From positions 14,852-78,851 of the forward strand of contig URNB01000001.1 of the NCBI GenBank assembly GCA_900549055.1: a DNA stretch of 64,000 nt, read 5' to 3'. Positions 11,471-37,346 of the stretch are shown here, piece after piece. The position numbers were made by a program, and so were the translations under genes. Each line of letters opens with the position of its first letter. Within the stretch, counting starts at the first letter, position 1. The notes below the pieces were generated by a model. That model did not search any database and was not told the DNA's origin. It saw only the letters and a program-made list of their open reading frames with translations. Source of the DNA: an uncultured Oscillospiraceae bacterium (GTDB lineage: Bacteria; Bacillota; Clostridia; Oscillospirales; Acutalibacteraceae).

Positions 11471-13081
11471 TTAAATTTCGAACAGTATCCGCCTGTGCTC
11501 CGACTCAACATCCGGCACTTCCGTTTCACAGATATTGTTAAGCGGTGCAAAGCTGCTGCCGTTTTCACTTGTATAAATGCATTTTGCGGCATTTGTAAGA
11601 CTTAGCTCTCCTACATTATCGACACACTCGGAATCTGTTCCCAAGAGTAAATATCCGTGGCCCAGTTTAATATGCGTGTTCCTGTATTCGGGGCAATCCG
11701 CCTGCAGCCTTATGAGCGGAATATCAAATTCCACAGTCAAATCGCATTCCTTTTCGGATATGCTTATTAAGGCAAAATCTCCCTCCGAATTAATTTTCAT
11801 CGGCGTTCCGTCCTTTAAAATTCTTAAATTATCGGCGTATTTAGGTATGTAAGCCTTAAAAATCAAATTATCCCTTTGAGGGTTGACAATACGGAAATCG
11901 GTTTTTCCGATATAAGGATATTCCGTTTTTTCGGTTATTTCGGTTTCGCCGAATTTGTATAATCCGTCGTTATAATAAAGAATTTCAAAGGTATTGCCGT
12001 CTCGCAGAATTTGGTTTTCGGCGCAATAAGCCAAACCGTCTCCGCCGCGCATGGTACAGCACCAATAGGCGATACTCATATCCTCGCCGACAGGTCTTAT
12101 AAAATCCTTGCCGTAACCTATGCACACATCAAGTCCGAAGCCGCCGTTAGGTCTTAAGGCATAACCCAGTGCGTTAAGATAAATTTTATGAAACCAAGCT
12201 AAATAATCGGAATTATGTGTCAGCTTATAAAGCTCGACGGCGCACATAACCGAATCCACAACGGTGCACGGCTCTGTCCAGGACGGACGGCCGAACCAGT
12301 TTATATTTGCGTAATTCTCGGTCATTCCCTCGTTTACATACAGCTTGAATATTCTCTCCGCGGTTTCAAGGTACTTTTTCTCATCGGTAATCTTATACAG
12401 CCGTATTACCCCGCGCGTTGCCGAAAGGGTGGCATGGGTCTGCATTTGAAGCCCCGCAAAATCAATTTTTGAGAAAACACCGTACATCTCGGTCAAAAGC
12501 GGAAGCAACTCCCATCTTTTAAGCTCAAGACACGCCTTTGACAATGCGTCCATACATATAAATGCGCAGCCTATATCGGTGGAAAGGTGCCAGCAGCCGC
12601 ATCTTCCGCTGTTTTCACCGCTGAAGCCGCCGCCGTTATTTTTATTCCTTTCAATTGGATATTCACAATAATGGGTCTTTGCTTTTAAATAGAGATTGTT
12701 TATTATGTTTTCAATCAGATTATATATTTCCTCTTTGCCTGTTATCAGATAGTATTCGATAAGACCGCTTAGCAGCCAATTGTGACCTGCAAGCTGCTGC
12801 TCGCTGAATTCGCCGTCGGGGAACACCTTGCCAAGATAGCCCATTTCGTTAAGATGCTCGCCCAAAGCGTCTATGATCTGCTCAAGGAACGCGGGCTCGC
12901 GCCCGGTTGCCTCACAAAGGCGCACAAGGGCTAAAATCGTTCTGCCCTCCCAGTCGCCGTACCACGCCGATTTATCGGCGGTGAAAATATAATCGGCACG
13001 GTAGCGGTAGCTTTCAAGAATACTGTAATTGAGCAAAAGCCTATATGCCAAATCACCGCGCACAGCTGTTGTTTTTTCCAT
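11471..13081 (-). CDS. (alpha/alpha)6-barrel glycoside-hydrolase-like protein with a C-terminal beta-sandwich (GH127/DUF1680-like or AGE-superfamily); intracellular
   Basis: No signal peptide; helix-rich ~390-aa N-terminal domain followed by a ~150-aa beta-rich domain; ATG at 13081 preferred over TTG at 13093; family call is tentative. Confidence 0.4.
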   Translation of the reverse strand: MEKTTAVRGDLAYRLLLNYSILESYRYRADYIFTADKSAWYGDWEGRTILALVRLCEATGREPAFLEQIIDALGEHLNEMGYLGKVFPDGEFSEQQLAGHNWLLSGLIEYYLITGKEEIYNLIENIINNLYLKAKTHYCEYPIERNKNNGGGFSGENSGRCGCWHLSTDIGCAFICMDALSKACLELKRWELLPLLTEMYGVFSKIDFAGLQMQTHATLSATRGVIRLYKITDEKKYLETAERIFKLYVNEGMTENYANINWFGRPSWTEPCTVVDSVMCAVELYKLTHNSDYLAWFHKIYLNALGYALRPNGGFGLDVCIGYGKDFIRPVGEDMSIAYWCCTMRGGDGLAYCAENQILRDGNTFEILYYNDGLYKFGETEITEKTEYPYIGKTDFRIVNPQRDNLIFKAYIPKYADNLRILKDGTPMKINSEGDFALISISEKECDLTVEFDIPLIRLQADCPEYRNTHIKLGHGYLLLGTDSECVDNVGELSLTNAAKCIYTSENGSSFAPLNNICETEVPDVESEHRRILFEI

Positions 13082-13111
13082 TTTATCACCCAAAAAATTA
13101 AAATACGCCGC

Positions 13112-15037
13112 TTAAACGTTTATCAGCATAATTACCGGCATAAGAATTTCCGCCCTTTGCTTCACGGTCAAAGCTATGCCATCCGTAAAAAATTCAACAG
13201 GCTTAAGCTCCCCGTCACAATCTAATACTCTGACGGATTTTACACTGCGGTCGGTAATAAGCCGAATATCCGGCAGTACATCCAAACCGATATTAAATAC
13301 CGCGCAAAAAAGCTCGCCCTCGTTCGCGGTATACGCCGCACGCAAAAGCACCTCGGCGTCTCCCGGATAATATATCGGCAGATTTCCGCTTTCGCTGAGC
13401 AGCTCCGCCATTTGTTTTTTGCGGGATTCGTTTAAGAAAGAAAACGCCTCGCAATAATTATATTCCGTTCGCGGCGTGCCGCAAAAAGCAACGACCGTGC
13501 CGCCCGCCGCATTCTTAAAGCGAGTAACGGCGGGGAAAAGCGTTTCACGCTGCTTTCCGCCGATTATGTGATAAGCCTCGGAGCAGACCTCCACAGCTGA
13601 ATCAAGCGGTATCAGCCTATGTATTCCCACCTGAGCCGAACAATCGTTTCCGTTCACATACAGCCTTTCTCCGCTGACATTCTCTCCGTTCCACGGCACG
13701 GCTTTTACACCCGTGTATTCGCCGAAGCCCCGCTCAAACAGTCTTTTTGCCGTATGAGCCGATAAAAATGCCGTTCCGCTGAGTATTTTTTTAAGCTCCT
13801 CATCGGAATATATCTCATCATCGAAGCCGTCCATGAAAACCGCACCGCCCGGCTCGTTTGAAAAATACAGAGGGAAGCCGAGTCTTTCAAGCACATGCGA
13901 ATGCCACCCGTTTTCGGGGCTGCCGCTCCAGCCAAGCGCCAAAGAAGGCGTATCAGGCAGGGGTATTCTGCAGCCTAAGTGCTTCAAGGTAGAAGTAAGC
14001 CGGTTTAAGGTATTATAAAATCCCGTGTGCTCTCCCAAAATTTCCCTGTATGCTTTTCCGCTTTCGGGTTCAAACGATGAAAGCCGTGTTATCCAGTGCT
14101 TTGCACCGCCGCAGCCCTCTATTATCGACGCGGTAAAATGCGCGTGCAGATTAGAAGCGCTTGTGCTGTAGCGGTTTTGCGGGCAGGTATCGGTTTCGGC
14201 AAGCAAATGATCCGCCTTGTGCCGCAGCATATTTGCCTGACACGCCGCCATATACATTACGGGGGTAAAATTTCTGGCTCCCGCAGATGTATACCGCGAG
14301 TTATTTACGCGCACAATAACGGGATTGCCGCACCCCGCCAGAATTTCCGCAATTTCGCCCGCGAATTCCGCCGCGTTGCCGCAGGCGCAGAAGCAGCCGG
14401 GTATTGACGGATTGACCGAATCTATGCCGTCCCGCATTGCCCTTGCGGCATTAATAAGCGACTCACCCTGCGTTTTGAAAAATACCTCGCGCAGCGCCGT
14501 GTCGTTTTCATCAAAAATGCGGCGGCAAAGCTCGGAACGCGTCAATTCCTCGCCCGTCAGCTCATTTATCCGCGCCATATGCAGCCCGCAGGCACACCCT
14601 CTGCCGGGACGCGCCATAAGCCTGAAATCGTCGTCAACCATAATAATTTTCGGCCTGTGCTTTGCAATAGTCGCAAATTCATTGAAAAAATGTCTTTTAA
14701 AGCCCTCGTCATACGGGCAGCAAACATATTCCGTTCTGCCGTTCGCCATGCCGACATACTGCGTAAAGGGCGACGCCTCGTCAAGCGGATAGCCATGTCC
14801 TATGGTCGCCTGCACCAAAATGCCGCATTCAAGCCCCATCTCGGCCAGCCTGTCTCTGAATAAATCATATTTACGGCACAGCTGCTCTGCCTTCCCGATA
14901 ACCGGATTGCCCTCGGGCACCAGCTTCATCATAAAGAGCGCGCAGCTTGCGGTTCCGTTTTCATACTGTGCCTTTATATCCTCGCATATTTCTTCGACAT
15001 GCGTATCGTCAAGCGGCATTATAGTATAATTATACAT
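13112..15037 (-). CDS. Hypothetical intracellular enzyme, possibly a TIM-barrel glycoside hydrolase or phosphorylase; family unassigned
   Basis: AAAAGGAGAAGG RBS before ATG at 15037 (ORF-track start 15067 has no RBS); no signal peptide; lies inside the glycan operon. Confidence 0.4.
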   Translation of the reverse strand: MYNYTIMPLDDTHVEEICEDIKAQYENGTASCALFMMKLVPEGNPVIGKAEQLCRKYDLFRDRLAEMGLECGILVQATIGHGYPLDEASPFTQYVGMANGRTEYVCCPYDEGFKRHFFNEFATIAKHRPKIIMVDDDFRLMARPGRGCACGLHMARINELTGEELTRSELCRRIFDENDTALREVFFKTQGESLINAARAMRDGIDSVNPSIPGCFCACGNAAEFAGEIAEILAGCGNPVIVRVNNSRYTSAGARNFTPVMYMAACQANMLRHKADHLLAETDTCPQNRYSTSASNLHAHFTASIIEGCGGAKHWITRLSSFEPESGKAYREILGEHTGFYNTLNRLTSTLKHLGCRIPLPDTPSLALGWSGSPENGWHSHVLERLGFPLYFSNEPGGAVFMDGFDDEIYSDEELKKILSGTAFLSAHTAKRLFERGFGEYTGVKAVPWNGENVSGERLYVNGNDCSAQVGIHRLIPLDSAVEVCSEAYHIIGGKQRETLFPAVTRFKNAAGGTVVAFCGTPRTEYNYCEAFSFLNESRKKQMAELLSESGNLPIYYPGDAEVLLRAAYTANEGELFCAVFNIGLDVLPDIRLITDRSVKSVRVLDCDGELKPVEFFTDGIALTVKQRAEILMPVIMLINV

Positions 15038-15103
15038 ACCTTCTCCTTTTAAAAAGCTGCCGCACATTTATAAAATGCGGCAGCCGAAACAGCACCCATA
15101 CTG

Positions 15104-18100
15104 TTATTTCTTTATGGATTTCTTTTTTCTGACGGCAATAATTATTATCACCGCCGCCAACACGCCGGCTGCAATTACGGCGCCTATTATAATCCATACA
15201 TAATTATTCGACGCGTCTTCCTGCGTATTTTTTGATTTGGCAGGCGTCTTTTTGCCGCCGTCAGGCTTCTTTACATTTTCCTCTGTCGGTTTTACCTCCT
15301 CCGATGTATTATCTTCATTGCCCGCGCTGTCGTTCATTGTATCGGCAATCTGATTAGTATTCTTATTGCCGTTCGATTTTTCAGGCAGCTTATCATCGGA
15401 AAGATTTTTAATACTGTGAATTGTATCCGAGGTTCTGACGATCATTACATCATCAAAGAATATACTTGTATTTCCGTCGGACACAAACGCAAGCCATGGC
15501 GTTCTTGCCGTAAACGAATATATGACCTCTGTCCATTCGTTTTGTTTAAGCGAGGATACCGACAGCATTTTTTCAACGCCGTTGTTCTTTTCCAATATAT
15601 CCGGCCATGTTTTGAATGCTAAGGATATGTTACCGGAAGCGCCTGCGGTATCGGTCATTATCCAGAATTTGAGCTTATATTCCGCACCTACGGTCAGCTC
15701 GTCGTCATAATTCACCAGGAATTCGTCGCTGACCGAGGCAAGACCCTTTCTGTGGATTGCCTTGCTGCCGCCGTGAACCTTATCTGCAACATATCCTGCT
15801 ACGCCCGGTCTGTAATATTCGTGGTCTTCGCCGAGGTCGTATTCGGTAGCGGGATAGTTTTCAAAATCCTGCACTACCGAGGTCAGTTCCCACTTAGCAT
15901 AAAGCGTCAACTTACCGGCGGGGAATATAGTCTCGGTGAATTTGCACTGCAGCTCGCTGTATACATACCAGCCTTCAAAGCGATAGCCCTCGCGCACAGG
16001 GGTAGGCAAAACAAGCTTTGCGCCTATAAGCCCCTCAATCGGAGGAACCGTAACACCCTCTGCGTTTGTCACAAAATCAATTCTTGTTTTTCTGGCTGTT
16101 GCCGTGGCGCTGCGTTTTATTCTCGGATAGAATATGCGCAGTATAGGCATTGTATCGTCAACCGTCATCCATACCTTATCATAGTCAAGCCCGGGCATAC
16201 CGCTTTTCGCATTTACACCGCACATATTGTCGGCGTTAACAAAGGTTACGCCGAGTCCAACGGCAACGCCGAAGGTATAAACATTTTCATATGTGTTTCC
16301 TGCGGCTATCAGATCTCCTCTGCCGTCCACTATTTGATCGAAATCGGCAGTGCAGGCATAGCAGTTTCTGATAATGGAATCAGGAGCGAAAGCATTGCCC
16401 AAAAGCGCACCGCAGCGTGAGCCGCCTATCAGCTTTCCTACAAAATAGCTGTCTTCGATTTTAATCGGAGAGGGCGTACCCGAAACCATACCACCCGCGA
16501 AATTGCCGCGCACGATTACGGAGGTATCGGCAAAGCATCCGCTTATGACCGGGTAATTTTCCTCTTTTACCTCATATTCCTCTCTCCAGTTCTTAACATA
16601 CGCCGCAAATGCCGCGCCGTATGCCTCGTTTTTAACGGTGGAAACGTCAATATAACTGTCAAGTATGCCGACATTTTTAATTGAAGCCTTTGTATCGATT
16701 CCGGGTATAAGTGCGCCGCGCACGTTATCAGCTTCGGTTCTGATATAAATACCGGATACAATGTGTCCCTGTCCGTCCAAATGACCCGCAAAGGCGTTGC
16801 TTATACCGAAGGTCACATACCAGTGATTCAGCTTTTTGCCGTCATACCAGTTTTCGCTTGAGGTATCATTAAGCTTTATGTCCTCTGTCAGTACATAATA
16901 TGCCGGAGTATCATTGTACACGGTATGCTCCGAAACCATTTTGTAAAGCTGTTCGCCTGTAGCAATTTGGTATGGGTCTTCTTCGGTACCTGTGCCTCCC
17001 GCATAGTCCTCCGCTTTAAGTCCGCTCCAGATCTGACCCGGAACACCGTCGGTTGAAGAATCGGACGATTTCTGATCCATATGCGGGTAGTCGTTTTCAA
17101 CCGTGTTCCAAATAGTATCCCATTTAAGTTCGGGCATAGCGTTCCTTGCGGATTCGCCTATTATCTGTTCCTCTTTTACAACATTGACCGCTATGTTCTG
17201 CGCGTCGCCGTGCCTTGCCTGCGACTGCGAAACGGTGGAATATCTTATTCCCGATGGCATACCGAAGGATTTGTCAATCGCAACGCAGCCTACGGTATAG
17301 CTGTCCGTAACATTCGCGGTACCCCACGAATCGCCGTAAAAACCGCCGGCATAGTTAGATTTATTTTCAAAGCTGCCCACAAAATAACAGCTCGTAACAT
17401 CCACAGAGCCTGCGCTTACCCCGCCTATCAGTCCGCCGACAGCCGCAGCCGCACCGAATATCGAGTCTCTTACGGAGCATTTGCTTATTCTTACGTTTGA
17501 GCCGGTTTGAATATATCCCGCGATACCGCCGAGATAGCAGTTACCTTCTCTCCTGCCGCTCAAATACGCTTTTCTTATGTTTACTCCCACAACGTTGCCT
17601 CTGCCCGCAAGCACGGGAATCAAGCCGCATTTTTCGGAAATATTATTACAATAAAGCCCGTATACCGTGTAGCCTTTACCGTTAAGTCTGCCCTTAAAGC
17701 CCGTGTTGGGCTCGGTTAAATTAATGCTGTACCATGAGTTCAGCTTTGCCGCCGTATACCAGTTTTCCGCCTTTACATCGTTAAGATAAATATCTGCCGC
17801 CAGCTCATAATAAGCACCGGGCTCGGGGTCTGTTGAAAGGCAGTGCTCCTTTACCATTTTATAAAGCTGCTCCGCGGTTTCGATTATATACGGATCGCCC
17901 TTTTCGCCGCTGCCGCTCTTATATTCCGCGGCGGTTTTGCCGCTCCAAACCTCGCCCTTTTTGCCGTCGTAATAATCGCCTACCGGCGCGTCCGAAACAT
18001 TTTTGCCCGCGGTGCTTCCCTTTATTATCGGGTAACCGCTTTTATTTATCTCCCAAACATCCCAACCGAGATTCGGCATGTTTACCTTTGCCGCGTCGCT

Positions 18101-20062
18101 CTGCATTGCGCTCTCGCCGCTGACTGCGGTGAGGTTAACGCCCTGCGAAATCCACCAGCTGTATGCCGAATACAGAGTTCCGTCCGAAATGGCGGAAGCG
18201 TCTTTAAGATAGGGTGCCAAATTACCGGTTATAAATGCAACCACGGAATATGAATTGACAATTCTGAGATAGGATGTTGCCAAAACATTCGAGGCTACTA
18301 TTCCGCCGCCCCAGCCGCTGCCTGCGGGATTTCCGTAATCATTGAATTTGGCAGCCGAGCCGCAGTATTCAACGGTTATCTTGGCATAGTGTCCGCAGCC
18401 GATAATTCCGCCGACATGGCAGTTTGCAAGATCACTGAAGTTAACGGTGTTATCCACCACGCATTTTGAAACCGTGATTACCGATGCCTTGTTTCCGGGT
18501 GCTAAATCTACGCAGCCCAAAATTCCGCCCATGTATACATCGACATTGTTATTGGGCGCGGCATATGCATACCGCACATTAACATTTGATATTACGGCAT
18601 TGCCGTTAGCTCTCGGAATAAGTCCGTATGCGTATTTTTCCTTGTAGGTTCTGTAGTACATACCGTAAACGGTGTGTCCCTGACCGTCAAAATGCCCCGC
18701 AAAGCCCTGATACATCCAGGTGGTGTCTCCGTGCGATGCCCATTCCTTAGGATTATTGTTAAGCCAGTTTTTATCCTTGATATTATTTAAGAATATATCC
18801 TTTGTTAAAACAAAGTATAAGTTTTCGGAATTTTCCTTTGTAAACGAGGTGTTTGAGGAAAAGCCGTAAAGCTGCTCCGCGCTGCTTATCTTATAAGGAT
18901 TTTCCTTTGTGCCGTCGCCCTCGAATTTTGTATCGGACGAGCCGTCCCATACCTCAAGGTCGCTGCCGCTGCCGCTCTCATAAGCGGTGCTTCCCTTAAT
19001 TGTGGGATAAGCGCCTTCATTTGCCTGCCAAACATCCCAGCCGAGCTTCGGCATATTGTTCTCTGCGCCCTTGCCCTGCATCGAAGCCTCGCTTGCAACC
19101 GGAGTAAGATTAACTCCGCCGTCGGTCGCCCACCAGCTTTGGGTGGAATACAGTGTGCCGTCGGAAATGTCCGCCGGCTTTATGCCGCCCATCCAGCCCG
19201 ATACAAAGGCAACAATCGAGTAGGAGTTGATTATTCTGACATATTCCGCTCCCCAGTGCCCCGGCGCACAGATTATACCGCCGCCCTTTCCGGCTGACGG
19301 ATTGCCGTAATCGCTGAATTTAGCTGCCGAGCCGCAGTAGCTTACAGTCACCTTTGATTCGCGAACAGGCCCTATTATGCCGCCCAAAAGGCTGCCCGAA
19401 ATCCTGCTGAAATCCACCGTGTTATCAACAACGCATTTGCTTATTTTAACATTTGCCTGATATCCCGGGGAATAATCTCCGTTGTTCTTCTGAACAAAAC
19501 CGACTATACCTCCCATATGAAACTCAACCGAATTGTTAGCCGCGGCAAACGAATGCCTAAGGTTAACATTAGTAATTTCGGCATTCCCCGTTACCATGGG
19601 TATAAGGCCGTATGTTCCGCCTGCGGTGTAGTTATCGTAATACATACCGTAAACGGTGTGTCCATGACCGTCGAAAAAACCGGAGAAGCCGAGTGAAGCG
19701 TCGTTTGCCGCGTCTGCTCCCATTTTCGCCCATTCTCTCGGCGAATTGTTCATCCAATCGGAGCTTGAAACATCGTTCAGATAAATATCGTTCGTAAGAA
19801 CATAGTATTTTTGCTCGGAATCCTTAACATTTACCCTTGCGGTAGCAAAGCCGTAAAGCTCCGCCGCGCTTGTTATTTTGTAAGGATTGTCTTTTGTGCC
19901 GGCGCCCTCAAATTCGGTATCGGACGAGCCGTCCCATACCTTTGTTTTTCCTGCGCCCGAAACCGCAATGCTTTCAATAAACAGGGACGAACAAAGCACG
20001 GCAATTACCGAAACTACCGCCGCAATTCTTGACAGCGTATCGGTTTTGAATTTAAACCTCAT
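15104..20062 (-). CDS. Giant (1652-aa) cell-surface protein with a signal peptide, four ~310-aa modules, a Listeria-Bacteroides (Flg_new) repeat, a CBM-like domain, a low-complexity stalk and a C-terminal TM anchor
   Basis: GAGGTGG RBS; signal peptide; each module has a (V/I)W(D/S)G..DPY.I.(S/T)AE(E/Q)LY(G/K) head plus GLUG-like Gly-rich beta-strand repeats (GGIVGFV, GGIIGPV, GGGIICAP); C-terminal TM plus KKKSIKK. Confidence 0.8.
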   Translation of the reverse strand: MRFKFKTDTLSRIAAVVSVIAVLCSSLFIESIAVSGAGKTKVWDGSSDTEFEGAGTKDNPYKITSAAELYGFATARVNVKDSEQKYYVLTNDIYLNDVSSSDWMNNSPREWAKMGADAANDASLGFSGFFDGHGHTVYGMYYDNYTAGGTYGLIPMVTGNAEITNVNLRHSFAAANNSVEFHMGGIVGFVQKNNGDYSPGYQANVKISKCVVDNTVDFSRISGSLLGGIIGPVRESKVTVSYCGSAAKFSDYGNPSAGKGGGIICAPGHWGAEYVRIINSYSIVAFVSGWMGGIKPADISDGTLYSTQSWWATDGGVNLTPVASEASMQGKGAENNMPKLGWDVWQANEGAYPTIKGSTAYESGSGSDLEVWDGSSDTKFEGDGTKENPYKISSAEQLYGFSSNTSFTKENSENLYFVLTKDIFLNNIKDKNWLNNNPKEWASHGDTTWMYQGFAGHFDGQGHTVYGMYYRTYKEKYAYGLIPRANGNAVISNVNVRYAYAAPNNNVDVYMGGILGCVDLAPGNKASVITVSKCVVDNTVNFSDLANCHVGGIIGCGHYAKITVEYCGSAAKFNDYGNPAGSGWGGGIVASNVLATSYLRIVNSYSVVAFITGNLAPYLKDASAISDGTLYSAYSWWISQGVNLTAVSGESAMQSDAAKVNMPNLGWDVWEINKSGYPIIKGSTAGKNVSDAPVGDYYDGKKGEVWSGKTAAEYKSGSGEKGDPYIIETAEQLYKMVKEHCLSTDPEPGAYYELAADIYLNDVKAENWYTAAKLNSWYSINLTEPNTGFKGRLNGKGYTVYGLYCNNISEKCGLIPVLAGRGNVVGVNIRKAYLSGRREGNCYLGGIAGYIQTGSNVRISKCSVRDSIFGAAAAVGGLIGGVSAGSVDVTSCYFVGSFENKSNYAGGFYGDSWGTANVTDSYTVGCVAIDKSFGMPSGIRYSTVSQSQARHGDAQNIAVNVVKEEQIIGESARNAMPELKWDTIWNTVENDYPHMDQKSSDSSTDGVPGQIWSGLKAEDYAGGTGTEEDPYQIATGEQLYKMVSEHTVYNDTPAYYVLTEDIKLNDTSSENWYDGKKLNHWYVTFGISNAFAGHLDGQGHIVSGIYIRTEADNVRGALIPGIDTKASIKNVGILDSYIDVSTVKNEAYGAAFAAYVKNWREEYEVKEENYPVISGCFADTSVIVRGNFAGGMVSGTPSPIKIEDSYFVGKLIGGSRCGALLGNAFAPDSIIRNCYACTADFDQIVDGRGDLIAAGNTYENVYTFGVAVGLGVTFVNADNMCGVNAKSGMPGLDYDKVWMTVDDTMPILRIFYPRIKRSATATARKTRIDFVTNAEGVTVPPIEGLIGAKLVLPTPVREGYRFEGWYVYSELQCKFTETIFPAGKLTLYAKWELTSVVQDFENYPATEYDLGEDHEYYRPGVAGYVADKVHGGSKAIHRKGLASVSDEFLVNYDDELTVGAEYKLKFWIMTDTAGASGNISLAFKTWPDILEKNNGVEKMLSVSSLKQNEWTEVIYSFTARTPWLAFVSDGNTSIFFDDVMIVRTSDTIHSIKNLSDDKLPEKSNGNKNTNQIADTMNDSAGNEDNTSEEVKPTEENVKKPDGGKKTPAKSKNTQEDASNNYVWIIIGAVIAAGVLAAVIIIIAVRKKKSIKK

Positions 20063-20102
20063 TTGTTTACCACCTCTACCGTAGGTATTTAAAATCTAAA
20101 AG

Positions 20103-20951
20103 TTAATTTGCAAAGTATATTTTCGACCTGTCGTTTTTTTGGTACAGTCTTATGTAATCGATATCATAGTCAGCCTTTGTGAAATTACTGCCGACAGTAA
20201 CGTTCTTTGCCCACTCGCCGCCCGAGGTACTTGTATACCCGGGTGTAAAAATGTGATTGTTGAGTATCAGGCAATGCGGGTCGTGAAAGCCCTGCATACC
20301 GCCGCTGCCGCCTATATTTTCGGCAAGCTTATATGTACTGTAGCGCGTGCCGTCAACAAACATTGATATTTCATACGGCGTCCACAGCATACCGTAGATA
20401 TGCCAGCCGCCGTCGGATATATCGAATGTGCCGTTTTTTACGGACGAAGAACGGACGCCGTATTTCTTTATGTTCTCTTCCTCTTCCCACCATTTGTGAA
20501 GCTGCGAAGAGACCGAATTATTGCCGAATACCTCAAAAATATCTATTTCGGTAAAATAATCCGCCTCCGGCTTACAGCCGAGCTTTTCGGCAATTTCTGC
20601 GCCCTCGGGGTTTACATTGCTTTTCATCCAAAGCGACGGCCAAACCCCCTGTCCCACAGGCACCCGTGCCCTCATTTCAAGATAACCGTATTTGAAGGTC
20701 ATGCTTCTGCCGGTCGTAACCGATTTTGAGGTTTTATAGCCGCCGCCCGTTTTTGAGGAGCGCAGCCGCAGGCAGCCGCCGCCGTCTGCGCCCGAGTCCC
20801 GTATGACTGCCGCAACATCGGAGGTTGCGGCAGTCGTAAGATCCGAATAGCCGTACATATAGTCGGTAAACGCCCATTTGCTCCCGTCTATTTCGGTGCC
20901 GTTGAATTCATCCGAAAAAACGAGCTTATAGCCTTCGTCACGCGTTTTCAA
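20103..20951 (-). CDS. GH16 glycoside hydrolase domain protein with no signal peptide; TTG start overlaps the upstream stop
   Basis: GH16 catalytic motif EIDIFE and KYGYLEMRARVP; paralogous to 35547-37055; starts at a TTG embedded in a T8 tract (TTTTTTTTGA). Confidence 0.75.
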   Translation of the reverse strand: MKTRDEGYKLVFSDEFNGTEIDGSKWAFTDYMYGYSDLTTAATSDVAAVIRDSGADGGGCLRLRSSKTGGGYKTSKSVTTGRSMTFKYGYLEMRARVPVGQGVWPSLWMKSNVNPEGAEIAEKLGCKPEADYFTEIDIFEVFGNNSVSSQLHKWWEEEENIKKYGVRSSSVKNGTFDISDGGWHIYGMLWTPYEISMFVDGTRYSTYKLAENIGGSGGMQGFHDPHCLILNNHIFTPGYTSTSGGEWAKNVTVGSNFTKADYDIDYIRLYQKNDRSKIYFAN

Positions 20952-23077
20952 AAAAAAGCAACAGCCTTTTTTACTCTTATAAGGTCAAGAACATTGACCG
21001 CATTATCATTATTGACATCGGCAATCCTGTTCTCTGCCGATTCAGCGCCCAAAATAATCTTTTTGAGCATCGTCACATCGCCCGCGTCGGGTGCGTCGCT
21101 GTCCTCGGCGTTCACATCGTAATTGCGAAGACCTCTGTTCTTTAAGAGCTTTTCACCCGTGCCGTACCATGCGTCACTGTCAAATTTCAAATCGGAATAG
21201 CCCGACGCCTTTACCAAACCTTCCCATGAGTCGCGGTCGAATCCGATATAATATGCGTTCGAGAAGCTGTATGCTCCGGGAATTTTGCACTCCCAATTTG
21301 ACGACTGAAGATTGACTGCCGCCGTATGCCAGCCGTATGTATAGAAATCCTTAATGGTTATATTCGCGTATCCGCCCCATACATCCGCATATGCGCCGCC
21401 CTTGGTTGCGGTCCCGCCGAGCACGGCAGAGGAATACGAATCGCCGATAGTTATCTTTGCAAGCGCACACCCTATAATTCCCGCAGTGCGTGTTCCGGTA
21501 ACCTGAACGGTATCATCCGCAGAACACCCGGAAATCACAACCTCACCCGAGGAGATTCCCGCAGTGCCGTTTGTAGCTCCTACAAACGCGGCAGCCCAAA
21601 CACCGTTTATATACGATTTTCTGATATGCAGATCGGTTATCGAGGAATCGGCGCCGATATTTGCTATAAGACCGGCATATTTATTACCGCTCAAATTATC
21701 GTTTGCCGAATAAAGACCGTAAATTGTGTGACCGTTTCCGTCAATGTGTCCCTTGAAGGTAGCCTCGTTGCGCTCCCACGACCACCAGTTGTGTGCCGGG
21801 GCGGACATTCCCCAGCTCTTGTAAAGTGTGATATCGTTCAGATAAAGATCGGAAGTTAAAAGGTAATATTTACCTGTTTCACTTGTCTCAGCCATTTTTC
21901 TCAACTGCTCCGGAGTAGCTATGAGATACGGGTCGCCCGCTTCGCCTGTTCCGCCGTCATACGCTGCGGCGGCGGTTCCGTCCCATACCTCATACTCGGG
22001 CTTAATGAACGCAGTGCTGCCCTGTATAGTCGGGTAAGCGCCCTTATTTGCCTGCCATACATCCCAGCCGAGATTCGGCATGTTAACCTTTGCGGCATCG
22101 CCGAACATCGCGGCGGAGCCGTCCACCGGAGTCAGGTTAACGCCGCCCGAGGTTGCCCACCAGCTCTGTGTGGAATACAACGTGCCGTCGGAAATATCAG
22201 CGGGTTTTATGGCGTTAAGCCAACCGCAGGTGAAAGCAACAACAGAATAAGAATTTAATATCTTCACAGACTCCGCTGCCCAGTTTCCGGGCGCGCAGAT
22301 AATTCCGCCGCCGTTGCCCGCGGGATTGCCGTAGCTGTTGAATTTTGCTGCCGAACCGCAATACTGAACAGTAACCTTTGATTCACGCACGGGGCCTACT
22401 ATACCGCCTATAAGTCCGGTAAGATTACTTAAATCCACGGTTTCATCCACAACACATTTGGTGATTTTAACGTTCGCCTGATAACCGCTTGCGTAATTGT
22501 CATTGTTTCTATCGATAAACCCGACTATGCCGCCGAAATGAATATTTGTGCTGCCGTTTGACTCCGCATAGGCATAACGCAGATTGACATTGGTTATTTC
22601 GGCGTTACCAACCGCTTTCGGAATAAGTCCGTAAGAATAGTTGACAGTATAATTCTTATAGTACATACCGTAAACTGTATGACCCTGACCGTCAAAATGC
22701 CCGGCAAAGCCATGCGCCGCCCACTGATATTTATAGTTACTCGCCCATTCTCTTGGGTTGTTGCTCAACCAGTTGCCGGCAGTAACATCGTTAAGATATA
22801 TGTCTTTGGTTAAAACATAGTATTTATCCTTTGAATTTTCCAAAGTAAAATCAGTATTGGATGAAAAGCCGTAAAGCTCCTCTGCGGTTGTTATTCTGTA
22901 AGGATCCGCCTTTGTGCCCGAGCCCTCGTATTCGGTATCGGCAGATCCGTCCCATATTGCCGCTGCCGTGTTCGCCGCGGATACGGGATAAATAACAAAC
23001 ATTGAAATTAAAAGCGCCATAGAAAGGAAAATAGAAAATACTCGCCTGCCAGTAAATTTGCCGAAGTCAGATTTCAT
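20948..23077 (-). CDS. Secreted 709-aa paralogue of the giant surface protein (two WDG..DPY/GLUG modules) with a C-terminal degenerate dockerin-like repeat
   Basis: GGAAAGGTGA RBS; signal peptide; module 1 is ~75% identical to module 1 of 15104-20062; C-terminus ADVNNDNAVNVLDLIRVKKAVAFF is a single dockerin-like repeat. Confidence 0.75.
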   Translation of the reverse strand: MKSDFGKFTGRRVFSIFLSMALLISMFVIYPVSAANTAAAIWDGSADTEYEGSGTKADPYRITTAEELYGFSSNTDFTLENSKDKYYVLTKDIYLNDVTAGNWLSNNPREWASNYKYQWAAHGFAGHFDGQGHTVYGMYYKNYTVNYSYGLIPKAVGNAEITNVNLRYAYAESNGSTNIHFGGIVGFIDRNNDNYASGYQANVKITKCVVDETVDLSNLTGLIGGIVGPVRESKVTVQYCGSAAKFNSYGNPAGNGGGIICAPGNWAAESVKILNSYSVVAFTCGWLNAIKPADISDGTLYSTQSWWATSGGVNLTPVDGSAAMFGDAAKVNMPNLGWDVWQANKGAYPTIQGSTAFIKPEYEVWDGTAAAAYDGGTGEAGDPYLIATPEQLRKMAETSETGKYYLLTSDLYLNDITLYKSWGMSAPAHNWWSWERNEATFKGHIDGNGHTIYGLYSANDNLSGNKYAGLIANIGADSSITDLHIRKSYINGVWAAAFVGATNGTAGISSGEVVISGCSADDTVQVTGTRTAGIIGCALAKITIGDSYSSAVLGGTATKGGAYADVWGGYANITIKDFYTYGWHTAAVNLQSSNWECKIPGAYSFSNAYYIGFDRDSWEGLVKASGYSDLKFDSDAWYGTGEKLLKNRGLRNYDVNAEDSDAPDAGDVTMLKKIILGAESAENRIADVNNDNAVNVLDLIRVKKAVAFF

Positions 23078-23106
23078 TTTTGATCACCTTTCCGTAAATT
23101 ATTTTT

Positions 23107-24537
23107 TTATTTTGTTTGCTTGGCAACAAAATCGTTCAGGGTTTTAACATCATTGTTAACCGTGTTATTGACCGCAGAAATAGCGGTTTCAATTTGCGAC
23201 GGGTCGTTCTTCGCAATATCGCCCAAAACCTCGGTAGCGTTACCCGTAACGCCGCGCGTACCGTTTATAAGCGAAAGATTTTTCTTTTCGGTGGTAACGC
23301 CGCTTGTAATCTTGAAGAAGAAGGACTCGGCAGCGGAATTTATAAACGCCGATGAGGTATTGTAGTTATTGACATCGAGATAATACCTTAAGAACAGACC
23401 TGCGGCAACCGGGTTTTTAGAGCCCTTTACAATGCCCCAGCCGCGGAAGAGTCCGGTGGTTACCGACTTTTGGCTCTTGCTCCAATCCGGGAGATAGGTG
23501 AAGCCTATGTTATCGGCATTCATCTTTGACCAGTAGCCTGTCTTTTTAAGACCGTAAGCGTTTGTAAGCGCTATTCCCACCTTGCCGTTTATGAAATCGT
23601 CGCGCAGATTGTAATCGTTAAGTCCCTTTATAAGACCATCTTTAAGGCAGGTTGCAAGATAGCGCGAAACATCCTTTAATTTTGAGTCGATGCCGTTGGA
23701 GAATTTGCCGTTTTCCCATTTATAATAGGAAACGCCCGTGCAGCCGAGAACGGTCTCCCAATCAAGGTAGCCGCCGATGTAATCGGAGCCCAACGCCTTA
23801 ACATCCTGCATTGCCTTCTTCATGGTATCGAATGTCCAGTTGCCCGCCTTGTAATATTCCTCGGGAGTGGTTATGTTGTTTTCATTAAACAGCTTTTTGT
23901 TATAGAAAACGCAGTCAACCTCGTTCCAGATATTTCCTACCGTATTTACAAGATAGGTCTTTCCGTTTATAGTGGAAAGATTGAACATACCCTGATCCCA
24001 TATCGGATCGGTTTTATCTATCTGCGCGGTATCGATAGGCTGCAGGCAGCTGAGAGCCGCCGGGAAATCGTTATTGCAGAAATAAATATCGGGAGGATTG
24101 CCCGCGGCAATACGGCTTGCTATGCTCATTGAATAATTAAGCTGACCTACAAGATCAAGCTGAAATTTTATGCCGTATTTCTTTGTAAAATCCTCTACGA
24201 CCTTGGCGTCCTCATTCTTTTTCGGGTCTGCCCAGGTGGCGTACCTTACCGTAGTGCCCTTATACTTCTTTGCAAGCTCCGCAAAGTTATCGGGCATTTT
24301 TGTGTTGTTCTTTTTGCCGCCCGAGGTTGTTTGGGAGGATGAGGTTTTGCCGCTCTTGCTGTCGGTTTTTCCAGAGGAATCCCCCGAGGTCTGCCCACTT
24401 GTGCCCGACTGATATTCATACACGATTTCAACATCGTCGGACAAGGAGCCGTCGTCACTGCTGCTCTTTTTGCAGGCGGTAAACGATGCCGTCATTGCCA
24501 ATGCCAAAAGAAGACAGAAAATTCTTTGCTTTTTCAT
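23107..24537 (-). CDS. CUT1 ABC transporter substrate-binding lipoprotein (SBP family 1)
   Basis: Lipobox LALAMTASFTAC; Ser/Thr/Gly-rich linker; SBP_bac_1-like body. Confidence 0.8.
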   Translation of the reverse strand: MKKQRIFCLLLALAMTASFTACKKSSSDDGSLSDDVEIVYEYQSGTSGQTSGDSSGKTDSKSGKTSSSQTTSGGKKNNTKMPDNFAELAKKYKGTTVRYATWADPKKNEDAKVVEDFTKKYGIKFQLDLVGQLNYSMSIASRIAAGNPPDIYFCNNDFPAALSCLQPIDTAQIDKTDPIWDQGMFNLSTINGKTYLVNTVGNIWNEVDCVFYNKKLFNENNITTPEEYYKAGNWTFDTMKKAMQDVKALGSDYIGGYLDWETVLGCTGVSYYKWENGKFSNGIDSKLKDVSRYLATCLKDGLIKGLNDYNLRDDFINGKVGIALTNAYGLKKTGYWSKMNADNIGFTYLPDWSKSQKSVTTGLFRGWGIVKGSKNPVAAGLFLRYYLDVNNYNTSSAFINSAAESFFFKITSGVTTEKKNLSLINGTRGVTGNATEVLGDIAKNDPSQIETAISAVNNTVNNDVKTLNDFVAKQTK

Positions 24538-24606
24538 TTTTTTTAAATCCTTTCAGAAAAAATTTTTATAATTAAAATTTTCAGTGTCGCCTTCACCTCC
24601 GTATAA

Positions 24607-25599
24607 TTATCCGGTAATGCCGACTCTGTCGATACTTTCAATAAACCACTTCTGCAGAATCATGTACATGATAAGCATAGGCGCTATGAAAAGTATGCAC
24701 GCCGCCATAACAATAGCCATAGACTGCGGATCGCGCGGCTGAAACAGCAGCCCCGCCTTATCGCTGAGCGCCGCCTCCAAACGCGTTACCTGCAGCGCAA
24801 GAGGATAGTCTCCCAAAAGGTACATTCCGCTTAAGGTCGAATCGTTCCAGTGCCAAATTACCGAGAAAATAAATACGGTGATTATAACGACCGAGGATGA
24901 CGGCACGGCGATATTGCAGAAGGTGCGGATAGGCCCTGCGCCGTCAACCCACGCGGCTTCCTCAAGCTCGCGCGGCAGACCCTTGAAAAACTGTATGTAG
25001 ATATAAATGAGGATTCCCGATTTAAGCCCCACCCCGAAAAGCGCGGGCAGCCAAAAGGTTACCGCCGAGCCTAATATATTGGGTCTTAAGTCCACCCCGG
25101 TAATTTTATTTACCAAAGCCAATATACCCAAGAAATCAAGATGCGAATAATTTATCATTCTCGGAATCAAAAGCATCATATCGGGCACGATTATCGTTAA
25201 AAACAGCAACGCCAGCTTTATCCTTTTGCCCCTGAATTCAAATCTTGCAAAGCCGTATGCCGCGACCGCGCAGGAAACCACCTGTATAAGCCCTGCGGCA
25301 ATTTCGTTTTTTAAGGTAGACAGCAGCGAGGTTGTGTAATCAAGACACAGCACGGCTGTTTTGTAGTTTTCCTTAATGCTCAAATCGCTCGGAATCCAAA
25401 TACGCGACGAATTTAAAAAGGCGTATTTGCTTTGCAGTGACGAAACTATCATATAAAGCATAGGGTATATCACTATATAACCGACAGCTATTAAAAACGC
25501 CATTCTGAAAATTGAGTATAATACCCTACTTGTGCGTTTTCCGACTGCTTTGAGCCGCACGGCGTCCCCGTCTGAAATTCGGCAGAAGCCATTATTCAT
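24607..25599 (-). CDS. Carbohydrate ABC transporter permease (MalG-like)
   Basis: AAAGGAGG RBS; six TM segments; EAA loop EAAWVDGAGPIRTF. Confidence 0.85.
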   Translation of the reverse strand: MNNGFCRISDGDAVRLKAVGKRTSRVLYSIFRMAFLIAVGYIVIYPMLYMIVSSLQSKYAFLNSSRIWIPSDLSIKENYKTAVLCLDYTTSLLSTLKNEIAAGLIQVVSCAVAAYGFARFEFRGKRIKLALLFLTIIVPDMMLLIPRMINYSHLDFLGILALVNKITGVDLRPNILGSAVTFWLPALFGVGLKSGILIYIYIQFFKGLPRELEEAAWVDGAGPIRTFCNIAVPSSSVVIITVFIFSVIWHWNDSTLSGMYLLGDYPLALQVTRLEAALSDKAGLLFQPRDPQSMAIVMAACILFIAPMLIMYMILQKWFIESIDRVGITG

Positions 25600-25623
25600 T
25601 TTAAAGCCTCCTTTAAAAGAACC

Positions 25624-26526
25624 TTATTCACCCCAGCGGCGCATAAGCGTATTCTTATACAGCAATATTATGATTGCCATCATTCCGCCGAAAATTAAGA
25701 AGTAAAACCACAGCATTGCCGAGGAGCGGTCGTATATACCGCCGCACATCATATTGTAGGTCTGCTGTATTATAATTCCCCTCGTGCTTATTATCAGCTC
25801 AACCATTGTGAAAATCGATACCAAAAGCGTCACCCTTGAAAGCATGGGGAAGGTTATAAACCAAAATTCCTCCCACTTTGTCGCGCCCTCAACGCGCGAA
25901 GCCTCGTAAAGACTGCCGGGAATCGACTGCAGCCCCGCCAAAAACAATACCGTTTGTATGCCGCAGCTCCATATAAGATCGAATATTTTGCTTATTGTCG
26001 AGGTCATATATTCCGCCGCCTTACCGTCTATCTGCAGCTTGGTTACTATATCGTCAACCGAAAGCATTCCCGCAGTGTAGGACTTTGAAACACCCATATT
26101 GGTAAGGTCGCTGCCGGTCGTTCTGAAAAGCCACGATATTACAGGCCCCGTCGCAATTATTACCGGAAGGAAATAAAGCGCCCTAAAAAAGAGTCTTCCG
26201 CGGAAATTCTGATTGAGTATCAGCGCCAGCACCAGGCTTAAAAGCAGTATTATCGGCAGCGAATACAAAAAGGATGTAACCGTGCTCCTGAGCCACCCTG
26301 TGTAATTCGGGTTTACAAAAAGTATGTTTTTATAATTTTTAAGCCCCACAAGGGATATATCCATGCCGCCGAGCTTTATCTTAACATCGGCAAAGGAATA
26401 TACCACAGACTGAGCAAGCGGCAGCAGGTAAAAGAGAATTATGCCGATAAGCCACGGCGTTGTGAACATTCTGCCGTATTTATCCTTAAGCGTAGTTATG
26501 CCCCTGTTCTTTTTTACCTTTTTCAC
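25624..26526 (-). CDS. Carbohydrate ABC transporter permease (MalF-like)
   Basis: EAA loop EASRVEGATKWEEFWFITFP; multi-TM. Confidence 0.85.
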   Translation of the reverse strand: MKKVKKNRGITTLKDKYGRMFTTPWLIGIILFYLLPLAQSVVYSFADVKIKLGGMDISLVGLKNYKNILFVNPNYTGWLRSTVTSFLYSLPIILLLSLVLALILNQNFRGRLFFRALYFLPVIIATGPVISWLFRTTGSDLTNMGVSKSYTAGMLSVDDIVTKLQIDGKAAEYMTSTISKIFDLIWSCGIQTVLFLAGLQSIPGSLYEASRVEGATKWEEFWFITFPMLSRVTLLVSIFTMVELIISTRGIIIQQTYNMMCGGIYDRSSAMLWFYFLIFGGMMAIIILLYKNTLMRRWGE

Positions 26527-28763: not shown

Positions 28764-28775
28764 TTCTGTCATCTC

Positions 28776-30875: not shown

Positions 30876-30893
30876 GTGGTTTCAGCTCCTTAA

Positions 30894-31808
30894 TTACTCC
30901 TTGATACCGGCACTGCTCATGCCCTCTACCACATTGCTTTGGGTGACAAGATATATAACTATCGGCGGTATCATCATTATAACAGTGATAGCCATACTGC
31001 TGCCGGAACGAGCAATGCCTCCCGCCGTTATTTGGCTTACTATCTGCGGCAGGGTCTTAAGCTGCTCGGTAAACACCGTTCCGTTCGGAACTGACGCCCA
31101 TATGTCCCTGAATGTGAAAAGAAACACGGTAAAGGTTGCCGGCTTTATTATCGGCAGTACGATTGAGAAAAATATGCGGTAGGAATTCGCTCCGTCGATT
31201 TTCGCCGCCTCAAGCAGCGCCTCGGGCAAATACCCCTCGATATACTGCTTAATAAGGAACACTCCGAGTGTTCCTGCCATAGGCGGCAAAAGGTATACCC
31301 AATATGTATCGATCATACGAAGCTTTGAAAATATCAAATATTGCGGCACCGCAAGCGTTGTAGCACTGAACATGAGCGCAAACTGAACTATCCAAAAAAG
31401 CACATTTCTTCCGTAAAAGGTCGCCTTTGAAAGCACAAAAGCGGCCATCGCCGAGACGAGTATATACACAAGCGAGGTTACTACACTTACAAAAATACTG
31501 TTGAATATATACCTTGAAAGCGGAATTTTCAGCGACGCCATAAGCTCCGGCAGCACAAGATAATTTTCAAGCGTGGGTCTGCTCACAAAAAAGCGAGGCG
31601 GAAAAATCATCAGCTCATCAAGCGGCTTAAAGGAGGTGCATACCGCATATACCAGCGGCAGCATTGTGAAAAGTCCGGCGAGGAATATAAGAAAAAAGTT
31701 CATGAAATTACCGAAGCGCGAACGCGTAAAGCGCCTGCTTGCCGGCTTTTCGTGAGCGTTTGCGCGCCCCTTTAAATATTTTTTCAGCGACATTTTCCTC
31801 ACCTTCAT
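30894..31808 (-). CDS. Carbohydrate ABC transporter permease (MalG-like)
   Basis: EAA loop EAAKIDGANSYRIFFSIVLP; multi-TM; 4-nt overlap with the upstream permease. Confidence 0.85.
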   Translation of the reverse strand: MKVRKMSLKKYLKGRANAHEKPASRRFTRSRFGNFMNFFLIFLAGLFTMLPLVYAVCTSFKPLDELMIFPPRFFVSRPTLENYLVLPELMASLKIPLSRYIFNSIFVSVVTSLVYILVSAMAAFVLSKATFYGRNVLFWIVQFALMFSATTLAVPQYLIFSKLRMIDTYWVYLLPPMAGTLGVFLIKQYIEGYLPEALLEAAKIDGANSYRIFFSIVLPIIKPATFTVFLFTFRDIWASVPNGTVFTEQLKTLPQIVSQITAGGIARSGSSMAITVIMMIPPIVIYLVTQSNVVEGMSSAGIKE

Positions 31809-32731: not shown

Positions 32732-32751
32732 TCTGCCGCTCCCGCGGGAAA

Positions 32752-35508: not shown

Positions 35509-35546
35509 ATAATTCAAACCTTTCAGGGGCATAAGGTGTTTTTTCT

Positions 35547-37055: not shown

Positions 37056-37284
37056 TACCGTCAACTCCCTGCTTTTTCGGATTTATGTTGTCATTCTGCC
37101 CAATTATTATAATCGATTGCCTTATTTTTTTAAATGCAATTTTTATTATAATTTGCACTTTTCTTCACTAATTTAACTTCCGAAAATTTTTCGGATTATA
37201 TTTTGGGGAAATATTTATTGATTTTTTTATTGAAATCTATTATAATTGAAGAATAAAATCAAGCCATTCCTGTGTTTTTTACCA

Positions 37285-37313: not shown

Positions 37314-37346
37314 TTTGTAAAATGCTTCTTTGTACGGGTGGTTACA

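Follow-up and report, generated by a model that had tools for sequence, protein, structure and literature searches.

A membrane-anchored protein with four tandem beta-helix modules as a candidate surface glycan-binding protein of a GH16/ABC importer locus in an uncultured Oscillospiraceae bacterium

Surface binding of polysaccharides and beta-helices of the GLUG type have been described in three settings close to the one reported here. In the beta-glucan locus of Blautia producta, a cell-anchored glycoside hydrolase family 16 (GH16) enzyme, BpGH16MLG, carries four carbohydrate-binding modules of family 4 (CBM4) and is encoded with a solute-binding protein and an ATP-binding cassette (ABC) importer (PMC10318527). 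In polysaccharide utilisation loci (PULs) of Bacteroidota, GLUG domains are placed on DUF1735 spacers at SusE/F-like positions (PMC11216935). The NTD2 beta-helix of immunoglobulin A1 (IgA1) proteases is non-catalytic, occludes the active site and moves on IgA1 binding (PMC9637739). The present analysis concerns a 1652-residue protein with four tandem modules of this beta-helix class. It is encoded in a stretch of 64,000 nucleotides (the window; assembly GCA_900549055.1, contig URNB01000001.1, positions 14,852 to 78,851) from an uncultured Oscillospiraceae bacterium, whose nearest genome is the uncultured human-gut Ruminococcaceae metagenome-assembled genome (MAG) UMGS974, with 96% identity. 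All coordinates below are those of the window unless another locus is named.

The locus has in common with that of Blautia a GH16_3-type endo-glucanase, non-catalytic binding modules that would be exposed at the surface, and ABC import (PMC10318527). In Blautia the CBM4 beta-sandwiches are borne on the enzyme itself, whereas here beta-helices are found mostly on a separate protein anchored by a transmembrane (TM) helix and the enzyme copy goes with a dockerin; a DUF5696 gene and a Yip1/NHL gene are additional. Like the surface glycan-binding proteins (SGBPs, SusE/F-like) of Bacteroidetes, the 1652-residue protein is non-catalytic, membrane-tethered, multi-domain and encoded in a utilisation locus. 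The SGBPs are lipoproteins of the outer membrane that bear Ig-like spacers and act together with SusC/D, whereas a C-terminal TM helix, a monoderm cell and ABC importers are found here. By this comparison, the protein would be a functional analogue of both the SGBPs and the CBM4 array of BpGH16MLG. The recurrent architecture and locus context of the protein were not found described in the literature searched.

The protein is best read as a surface glycan-binding protein of a beta-1,3-glucan-type (GH16 laminarinase-like) utilisation locus, with a probability of roughly 0.55. This reading is based on the recurrent GH16/ABC locus, the accessory-domain behaviour of the modules, the CBM-like domain and the positional module types. 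After cleavage of the signal peptide, a disordered stalk rich in Lys, Asn, Asp and Glu would carry the protein out from the membrane. The CBM4/22-like jelly-roll would come next, then the InlB B-repeat, and the four right-handed beta-helices would form a rod at the outer end. The distal beta-helix array, possibly with the proximal CBM-like domain, would hold polysaccharide at the cell surface, where a dockerin-borne or free GH16 enzyme would cut it and solute-binding proteins would collect the resulting oligosaccharides. That the substrate is a beta-glucan and that the modules bind glycans are both inferred. The parts of the protein, all on the minus strand, are the following.

19952..20062, minus strand: predicted signal peptide, residues 1 to about 37, with basic n-region R2, K4, K6 and R12, core IAAVVSVIAVLCSSLF and an AVSGA-like cleavage region
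18953..19939, minus strand: beta-helix module 1, residues 42-370, positional type A
17951..18952, minus strand: beta-helix module 2, residues 371-704, type A, 53% identical to module 1, with which it forms a duplicate pair
17033..17950, minus strand: beta-helix module 3, residues 705-1010, type B, with N at the D128 position and Y at the H132 position
16076..17032, minus strand: beta-helix module 4, residues 1011-1329, type C, always the final module before Flg_new
15887..16075, minus strand: InlB B-repeat / Listeria-Bacteroides repeat (Flg_new; Pfam PF09479, TIGR02543), residues about 1330-1392
15419..15877, minus strand: CBM4/9/22-like beta-jelly-roll, residues about 1396-1548
15203..15418, minus strand: low-complexity stalk rich in K, N, D, E, S and T, residues about 1549-1620, judged by composition
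15131..15202, minus strand: single C-terminal TM helix YVWIIIGAVIAAGVLAAVIIIIAV, residues 1621-1644, judged by hydropathy
15107..15130, minus strand: predicted cytoplasmic basic tail RKKKSIKK, positive-inside

The open reading frame (ORF) at 15104..20062 on the minus strand encodes the 1652 residues from an ATG start, with the Shine-Dalgarno sequence GAGGTGG located 7 nt 5' of it. The signal peptide was called from the sequence and its hydropathy rather than by a dedicated predictor, and its hydrophobicity maximum was 2.33 at residues 16-34. The C-terminal helix has 24 residues with a mean Kyte-Doolittle hydropathy of 3.19 over 19 residues, and is preceded by the stalk of 73 residues, at whose start the per-residue model confidence (pLDDT) falls to 52-69. 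Scans against Pfam and NCBIfam at E<=1 gave Flg_new as the sole match in the 1652-residue protein, with none to GLUG, CBM or catalytic families. The M26 IgA1-specific metalloprotease was rejected as a candidate, as neither a peptidase family match in these scans nor an HExxH motif in the 1652 residues was found. A sortase-anchored surface protein was likewise rejected, the LPXTG-like motif (LP.[TSA]G) being absent throughout the protein, and a cellulosomal scaffoldin was rejected on the lack of a cohesin domain; a dockerin is also missing from the protein. The protein has a type I topology (N-out, C-in) with a membrane anchor; it shows no detectable catalytic domain and is presumably exposed at the surface. 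The initial annotation, made from the sequence alone, had described a surface protein of four modules with a C-terminal membrane anchor, free of a recognisable catalytic domain, LPXTG motif or dockerin, and all of these features were recovered. Its suggestion of a glycan-capturing scaffold or adhesin is a role that the context makes plausible.

The repeat was analysed from its opening motif. The [VI]W[DS]G motif occurs exactly four times in the protein, at residues 42, 371, 705 and 1011, and each occurrence opens a G.GT..(D/N)PY.I...(E/Q)LY motif, giving four modules in tandem with lengths of 306-334 residues. Identity to module 1 is 53% for module 2, 32% for module 3 and 27% for module 4, and 66% and 30% for the two modules of a 709-residue paralogue encoded nearby. 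The module hidden Markov model (HMM) gave i-E-values of 1e-81 to 1e-90 in the 1652-residue ORF, and 400-483 bits per module in P0001, a protein 98% identical to it. These identities and scores place the four-module repeat far beyond chance. No module copy was found elsewhere in the window besides this ORF and the paralogue.

The AlphaFold2 model of module 1, built from an alignment of 59 diverse modules, was confident (pLDDT 92.2, pTM 0.93) and composed of short beta-strands. It superposes as a right-handed parallel beta-helix on a solved member of the GLUG / IgA1-protease-NTD2 class, and Foldseek agrees; the structural check of a single module that had been proposed was thereby answered with a beta-helix. 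The profile of the same 59 sequences, searched against the PDB sequences, reached 3N6Z at E 3.8e-23, 7UVK at 5.6e-10 and 6XJB at 1.1e-5, while a profile of 6 sequences gave noise only, so that the relation to 3N6Z and the IgA1 proteases becomes visible at the sequence level only with the larger profile. Pfam Glug (PF07581) and Peptidase_M26_N (PF05342) gave no match at E<=1 in the 1652-residue protein or at E<=0.1 in module 1. At E<=0.1, 14/59 family modules matched Glug and 3/59 matched Peptidase_M26_N, and the module of one homologue reached Peptidase_M26_N at E 1.7e-12; P0085 (23.2 bits against 20.5) and P0017 (47.5 against 27.7) passed the Pfam cutoffs. The Pfam models are simply too short or too narrow for this module subfamily, and the full module of about 300 residues is covered by no Pfam model. 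The description of the modules as GLUG-like was thus borne out by the wider profile, although the Pfam scan intended to check it found Flg_new and not Glug.

The solved relatives differ from the present protein in architecture. The 3N6Z structure is a structural-genomics entry for BACOVA_03286 of Bacteroides ovatus, named 'putative immunoglobulin A1 protease', and is homologous to the module in both sequence and structure; it is a single domain of a Bacteroidota protein with no published function, whereas four such domains stand in tandem here in a TM-anchored Firmicute protein with Flg_new and a CBM-like domain. The M26 IgA1 metalloproteases (6XJB/7JGJ of S. pneumoniae, 7UVK of G. haemolysans) carry one NTD2 beside the protease, in contrast to the tandem array; the 1652-residue protein has no M26 catalytic domain, HExxH, G5 or LPXTG, and its context is glycan uptake where theirs is immune evasion. 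The beta-helix adhesins PfbA (S. pneumoniae) and SRRP binding regions (L. reuteri) were also among the fold matches; they resemble the modules at the fold level only, and each of them is a single beta-helix that is anchored by sortase and has a protein or pectin-like ligand. The modules are therefore members of a structurally known and functionally uncharacterised class, and their fold is not new. The initial annotation had called the protein one of undescribed type, which is not fully upheld, because the module is homologous to 3N6Z and NTD2 and its family counts tens of thousands of database members.

The C-terminal cassette was then compared among relatives. The 236 residues after module 4 are kept in 135 of the 247 relatives collected, and 124 of these 135 end in a TM helix with a basic tail. 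The Flg_new repeat at residues 1347-1390 exceeded the cutoffs of both PF09479 (E 9.4e-9, 35.7 bits against 27) and TIGR02543 (E 1.7e-5, 25.0 bits against 20.95), as the initial annotation had anticipated, and it was matched in 37/37 representative cassettes. CBM_4_9 was matched in 36/37 of them at E<=0.1 (best 2.3e-8). The next domain has the beta-jelly-roll fold of the CBM4/22/35/6 group, in agreement with the beta-sandwich proposed earlier. The C-terminal region alone gave only a marginal InlB match against the PDB sequences.

The protein lies in a run of 14 minus-strand genes (11471..37064) with gaps of at most 69 nt, which include GH16, solute-binding protein and permease genes and confirm its reported position in a glycan-import operon. 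The closest solved relatives of the neighbouring GH16 are laminarinases and endo-1,3-beta-glucanases. The order DUF5696, permeases, solute-binding protein, dockerin/beta-helix protein, GH16 and TM-anchored multi-beta-helix protein recurs in four further loci (L002, L003, L005 and L008), whose proteins are 28-51% identical. In a fifth locus, L009, with a relative of 32% identity, DUF5696, permeases and GH16 are shared in a different order; that relative adjoins GH16, GH30 and a 2590-residue GDSL+GH16 protein, with DUF5696 and permeases upstream. The 1652-residue protein is a fixed component of a GH16/ABC locus with two ABC importers.

Several observations weigh against glycan capture by this protein. 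No ligand-binding site was identified on the modules, whose model coordinates were not inspected, and the conserved module positions are mostly G, P, W, Y or hydrophobic, that is structural. The characterised relatives, the NTD2 domains, contact protein and not glycan, and no publication tied to 3N6Z was met in the literature searched. To our knowledge, no member of the GLUG / NTD2 beta-helix class has a demonstrated carbohydrate ligand. The CBM_4_9 match of the window protein itself scored 17.9 bits (E 0.0042), under the Pfam cutoff of 25.9. The substrate is assigned from GH16 similarity alone, and host or other glycans are possible, since GH123 and ADP-ribosylglycohydrolase genes lie nearby and SASA or fucosidase partners are found in relatives.

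The family was surveyed for its size and for the rules of its arrays. The full-length protein search returned 186 relatives; the few whose source is named come from Clostridia or Ruminococcaceae MAGs, with labels such as 'InlB B-repeat-containing' or 'hypothetical'. The HMM built from the window's modules found 426 complete modules in the 120 matches listed, with 2-8 per protein. Against a representative library of 1.84 billion proteins, the module profile matched 35,414 proteins at E<=1e-3 and 2,149 at E<=1e-30; the former are cluster representatives and give a lower bound for the family. Up to 23 matched stretches per protein were found in this library, and 1-18 long modules per protein among the 247 relatives. 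The array begins in the first 60 residues of the chain in 89% of these relatives (median residue 42), and a median of 281 residues follows the last module. The array is followed either by the Flg_new/CBM/stalk/TM tail or by a dockerin and/or a catalytic domain (GH16, SASA, GDSL esterase), with ricin-B also among the downstream partners.

Three positional types were distinguished in the 1652-residue protein, namely A (modules 1 and 2, a duplication), B (module 3) and C (module 4). Module 3 shares 54-57% identity with its positional counterparts in P0002, P0003 and P0006 and 31-32% with the other modules of its own chain; module 4 is 55-60% identical to the final module of these orthologues. Overall, types A, B and C each have 54-60% identity to their counterparts in orthologues, and identity between different types is 27-35%. 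This positional conservation suggests non-redundant roles for types A, B and C. In P0003, modules 1 and 2 (residues 41-362 and 365-689, distal type A) share 87% identity, where the window protein has 53%, which indicates that the outermost module was recently and independently duplicated or underwent gene conversion.

A passive spacer or coat, in which the array would be a rigid rod with no ligand specificity that adds reach or a surface layer and leaves binding to the CBM-like domain, is an unlikely explanation that deserves to be kept in view. The variable copy number, recent duplications such as that in P0003 and the mainly structural conserved residues all agree with it, and such roles were proposed for other accessory domains of PULs (PMC11216935). 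Three conserved positional types would be needless for a generic spacer. Moreover, with the anchor at the C-terminus, the CBM-like or catalytic domain stands nearer to the cell than the beta-helices, which reach out farthest of all; this position argues against a spacer that pushes those domains outward and fits a distal role in capture or contact.

An adhesin directed to the host or to particles, whose array would bind mucus, IgA or another protein or cell surface with the locus placement reflecting co-regulation only, is considered rather improbable. It draws on the homology to the IgA1-contacting NTD2, the InlB B-repeat, the PfbA and SRRP fold matches and the human gut source. The tight and recurrent operon placement with GH16, solute-binding proteins and permeases speaks against it, as do the direct fusion of the same modules to GH16 and carbohydrate esterases and the presence of a CBM-like domain in the same chain.

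The paralogue links the modules to an enzyme. This 709-residue protein (20948..23077, minus strand) consists of a signal peptide, a type-A module (66% identical to module 1), a module of a fourth type and a type I dockerin at residues 664-706 (PF00404, 27.6 bits against a cutoff of 22.9). The initial annotation had correctly given it a dockerin in place of the TM anchor; its picture was incomplete, because a GH16 domain follows in the -1 frame. The junction has two parts.

20948..20957, minus strand: run of eight T followed by TGA, holding the slippery heptamer T_TTT_TTT and the 0-frame stop, past which the GH16 frame continues in -1
20103..20951, minus strand: leaderless laminarinase-like GH16 domain of 282 codons, in frame -1 relative to the paralogue (Pfam GH16, E 5e-14)

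The 709-residue ORF ends in GCT TTT TTT TGA, and GH16 continues from the same T run as TTG AAA ACG, so that the candidate junction peptide of the -1 reading is ...AVAFFLKTRDEGYK. Solved laminarinases align from GH16 residues 5-10. In the homologues P0085, P0087 and P0070, modules, dockerin and GH16 form a single polypeptide, and the conceptual -1 fusion aligned with the in-frame P0070 and P0087 as a single high-scoring segment pair spanning the junction. The -1 geometry with a homopolymer heptamer was seen in 12/12 split loci examined, the window included, from about five lineages. The junction is a T run in the window, L001, L006, L007, L008, L010, L011 and L012 and A_AAA_AAA in L002, L005, L022 and L024; the forms are T_TTT_TTT with the stop, T_TTT_TTC, and A_AAA_AAA 18 nt before the stop. 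GH16 is fused in frame in four loci; in another it is a separate gene, which lies in the +1 frame and has an N-terminal region of its own.

Independent starts for the GH16 frame were sought. No ATG, GTG or TTG precedes the conserved YKLVFSDEFNG strand in L001, L007, L010, L011 and L012, and no start codon precedes the conserved linker upstream of the called start in L002 and L005. Read in -1, this linker shows about 10 synonymous and 3 non-synonymous differences when L002 and L005 are compared by inspection. In L010 (3490..3501), a near-identical strain with an identical GH16 protein, TAA replaces the TGA of the window; the stop in frame 0 and the Leu in -1 (TTG to TTA) are both kept, and the sole candidate GH16 start is removed. 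Shared pseudogenisation of GH16 seems unlikely, because its frame is intact with 55-100% identity across the split T-run lineages. The junction is therefore put forward, from comparison of the sequences, as a candidate conserved -1 recoding site. No conserved downstream stimulatory RNA structure was found (alifold -0.2 kcal/mol; single-sequence z -0.72), so both ribosomal -1 frameshifting and transcriptional slippage are possible. Nothing linking frameshifting with dockerins was found in the literature searched, where the -1 dockerin/GH16 junction appears to be undescribed. The junction ties the modules physically to a GH16 enzyme and thereby strengthens their reading as accessory modules.

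A bolder form of the glycan-capture reading is doubtful. It holds that the modules of about 300 residues would be a new, non-beta-sandwich class of CBM and a Gram-positive counterpart of the SGBPs, that the three types would read different beta-glucan features, and that the GH16 of the paralogue would be attached only through conserved -1 recoding. If true, one locus would yield both a non-catalytic dockerin protein and a dockerin-GH16 enzyme.

The dockerin also raises the notion that the TM-anchored protein tethers the adjacent dockerin-bearing beta-helix/GH16 protein through a non-canonical, cohesin-independent contact. In the window, L001, L002, L003, L005 and L008, nothing but the GH16 ORF lies between the genes of the two proteins, and no cohesin family was found among the 22 window proteins scanned; such a contact is nevertheless held to be very improbable.

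The modules were also examined for signs of catalysis. Conservation was scored over 140 representative modules with no pair above 45% identity. Nearly all conserved columns are G, P, W, Y or aliphatic, and the conserved polar positions are D92 (93%), N96 (98%), D97 (78%), D128 (85%) and H132 (66%, otherwise Y or F). These five fall in the DIYLND and FDG.GH motifs. The substitutions, namely H132 to Y or F in 27% of modules and D128 to N in 9%, are conservative and structural; in the window protein they occur at both positions of module 3 and at D97 of module 2, which is N. The beta-helix polysaccharide lyases and hydrolases (PL1/3/6/9, GH28/49/55/87) were rejected as candidates, as neither a family HMM match nor a conserved catalytic constellation (a Ca-binding Asp cluster with an Arg/Lys base, or three catalytic Asp on the central rungs) was found. 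A well-characterised enzyme family with conserved catalytic residues had been named as the finding that would overturn the initial annotation; it was looked for and not encountered. Arrays of up to 23 modules and attachment to many catalytic domains are accessory-module behaviour, and on these sequence grounds the modules are treated as non-catalytic and a catalytic role as the leading interpretation is rejected. That one or more modules might act as a cryptic lyase of polysaccharides, a hydrolase or an esterase, with D92, D97, D128 and H132 as the residues used, is thus given very little credence, since the family HMMs (PL, GH and carbohydrate esterase) gave no match except a weak GH49 hit (E 0.019) in 1/59 modules, no Arg or Lys that could act as base is conserved across the 140, H132 and D128 are substituted in the proportions given above, the motifs lie in the N-terminal cap region and not in the central rungs, N96 and D97 are not conserved in 3N6Z nor D128 in the IgA1 proteases according to the profile alignments, the nearest relatives are non-catalytic or of unknown function, and tandem arrays of this size are atypical of catalytic domains.

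The remaining genes of the locus, from its head to its end and with two flanking genes, are as follows.

38213..39904, minus strand: 563-residue protein beyond the AraC gene, with generic Beta_helix (PF13229), not the GLUG module type
37338..38171, plus strand: divergent AraC regulator
35547..37064, minus strand: GH16 of 505 residues at the cluster head, catalytic domain at residues 279-440, N-terminal half unannotated
32752..35532, minus strand: solute-binding protein of 926 residues, binding domain at residues about 543-833, N-terminal extension of about 540 residues unannotated
between the 926-residue solute-binding protein and the Yip1/NHL gene, minus strand: two permeases
28776..30875, minus strand: Yip1-domain membrane protein with NHL repeats, 699 residues
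26523..28772, minus strand: DUF5696 protein, 749 residues (E 8.6e-136)
between the DUF5696 gene and the 476-residue gene, minus strand: two permeases
23107..24537, minus strand: solute-binding-protein-like protein of 476 residues, no Pfam match at E<=1e-3
20948..23077, minus strand: paralogue of 709 residues, followed by the GH16 ORF (20103..20951, minus strand) and then the 1652-residue protein
13112..15067, minus strand: protein of 651 residues, no Pfam or PDB sequence match
11471..13093, minus strand: GH127/GH88-like protein of 540 residues, with sub-threshold GH88 and GH127 similarity only

The 476-residue ORF probably encodes the solute-binding protein of the second ABC system in a diverged form, because L002, L005 and L008 encode SBP_bac_1/8 proteins of 441-476 residues at the same place. 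The 651- and 540-residue proteins may be unrecognised intracellular glycoside hydrolases of the locus. DUF5696 and the 651-residue neighbour have no relatives among the PDB sequences, and nothing relevant on DUF5696 or BACOVA_03286 was found in the literature searched. DUF5696 and Yip1/NHL belong to the conserved core of this kind of locus (L002, L003, L008 and L009), with functions unassigned. A faint Golvesin_C match was seen in the L008 counterpart of the 926-residue solute-binding protein. In L009, the 2590-residue protein with GDSL esterase and GH16 matches (19004..26776, plus strand) comes directly after GH16 and the TM-anchored relative, which has seven modules; judged by its length it is probably P0133, with six module stretches, and it illustrates large, combinatorial fusions of modules and enzymes.

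The module family comprises at least 35,414 cluster representatives from public protein collections, most of which bear the label hypothetical or 'InlB B-repeat-containing'. The tie of the modules to 3N6Z and NTD2, together with the GH16/ABC recurrence, yields a hypothesis on function that can be tested for a large group of 'dark' surface proteins of Clostridia. In practice, the -1 junction also warns of loci of this kind being mis-annotated as a pair of genes. Glycan binding by the modules, if it occurs, would add a new fold to the CBM repertoire, and the locus sketches how uncultured gut Ruminococcaceae may harvest beta-glucans.

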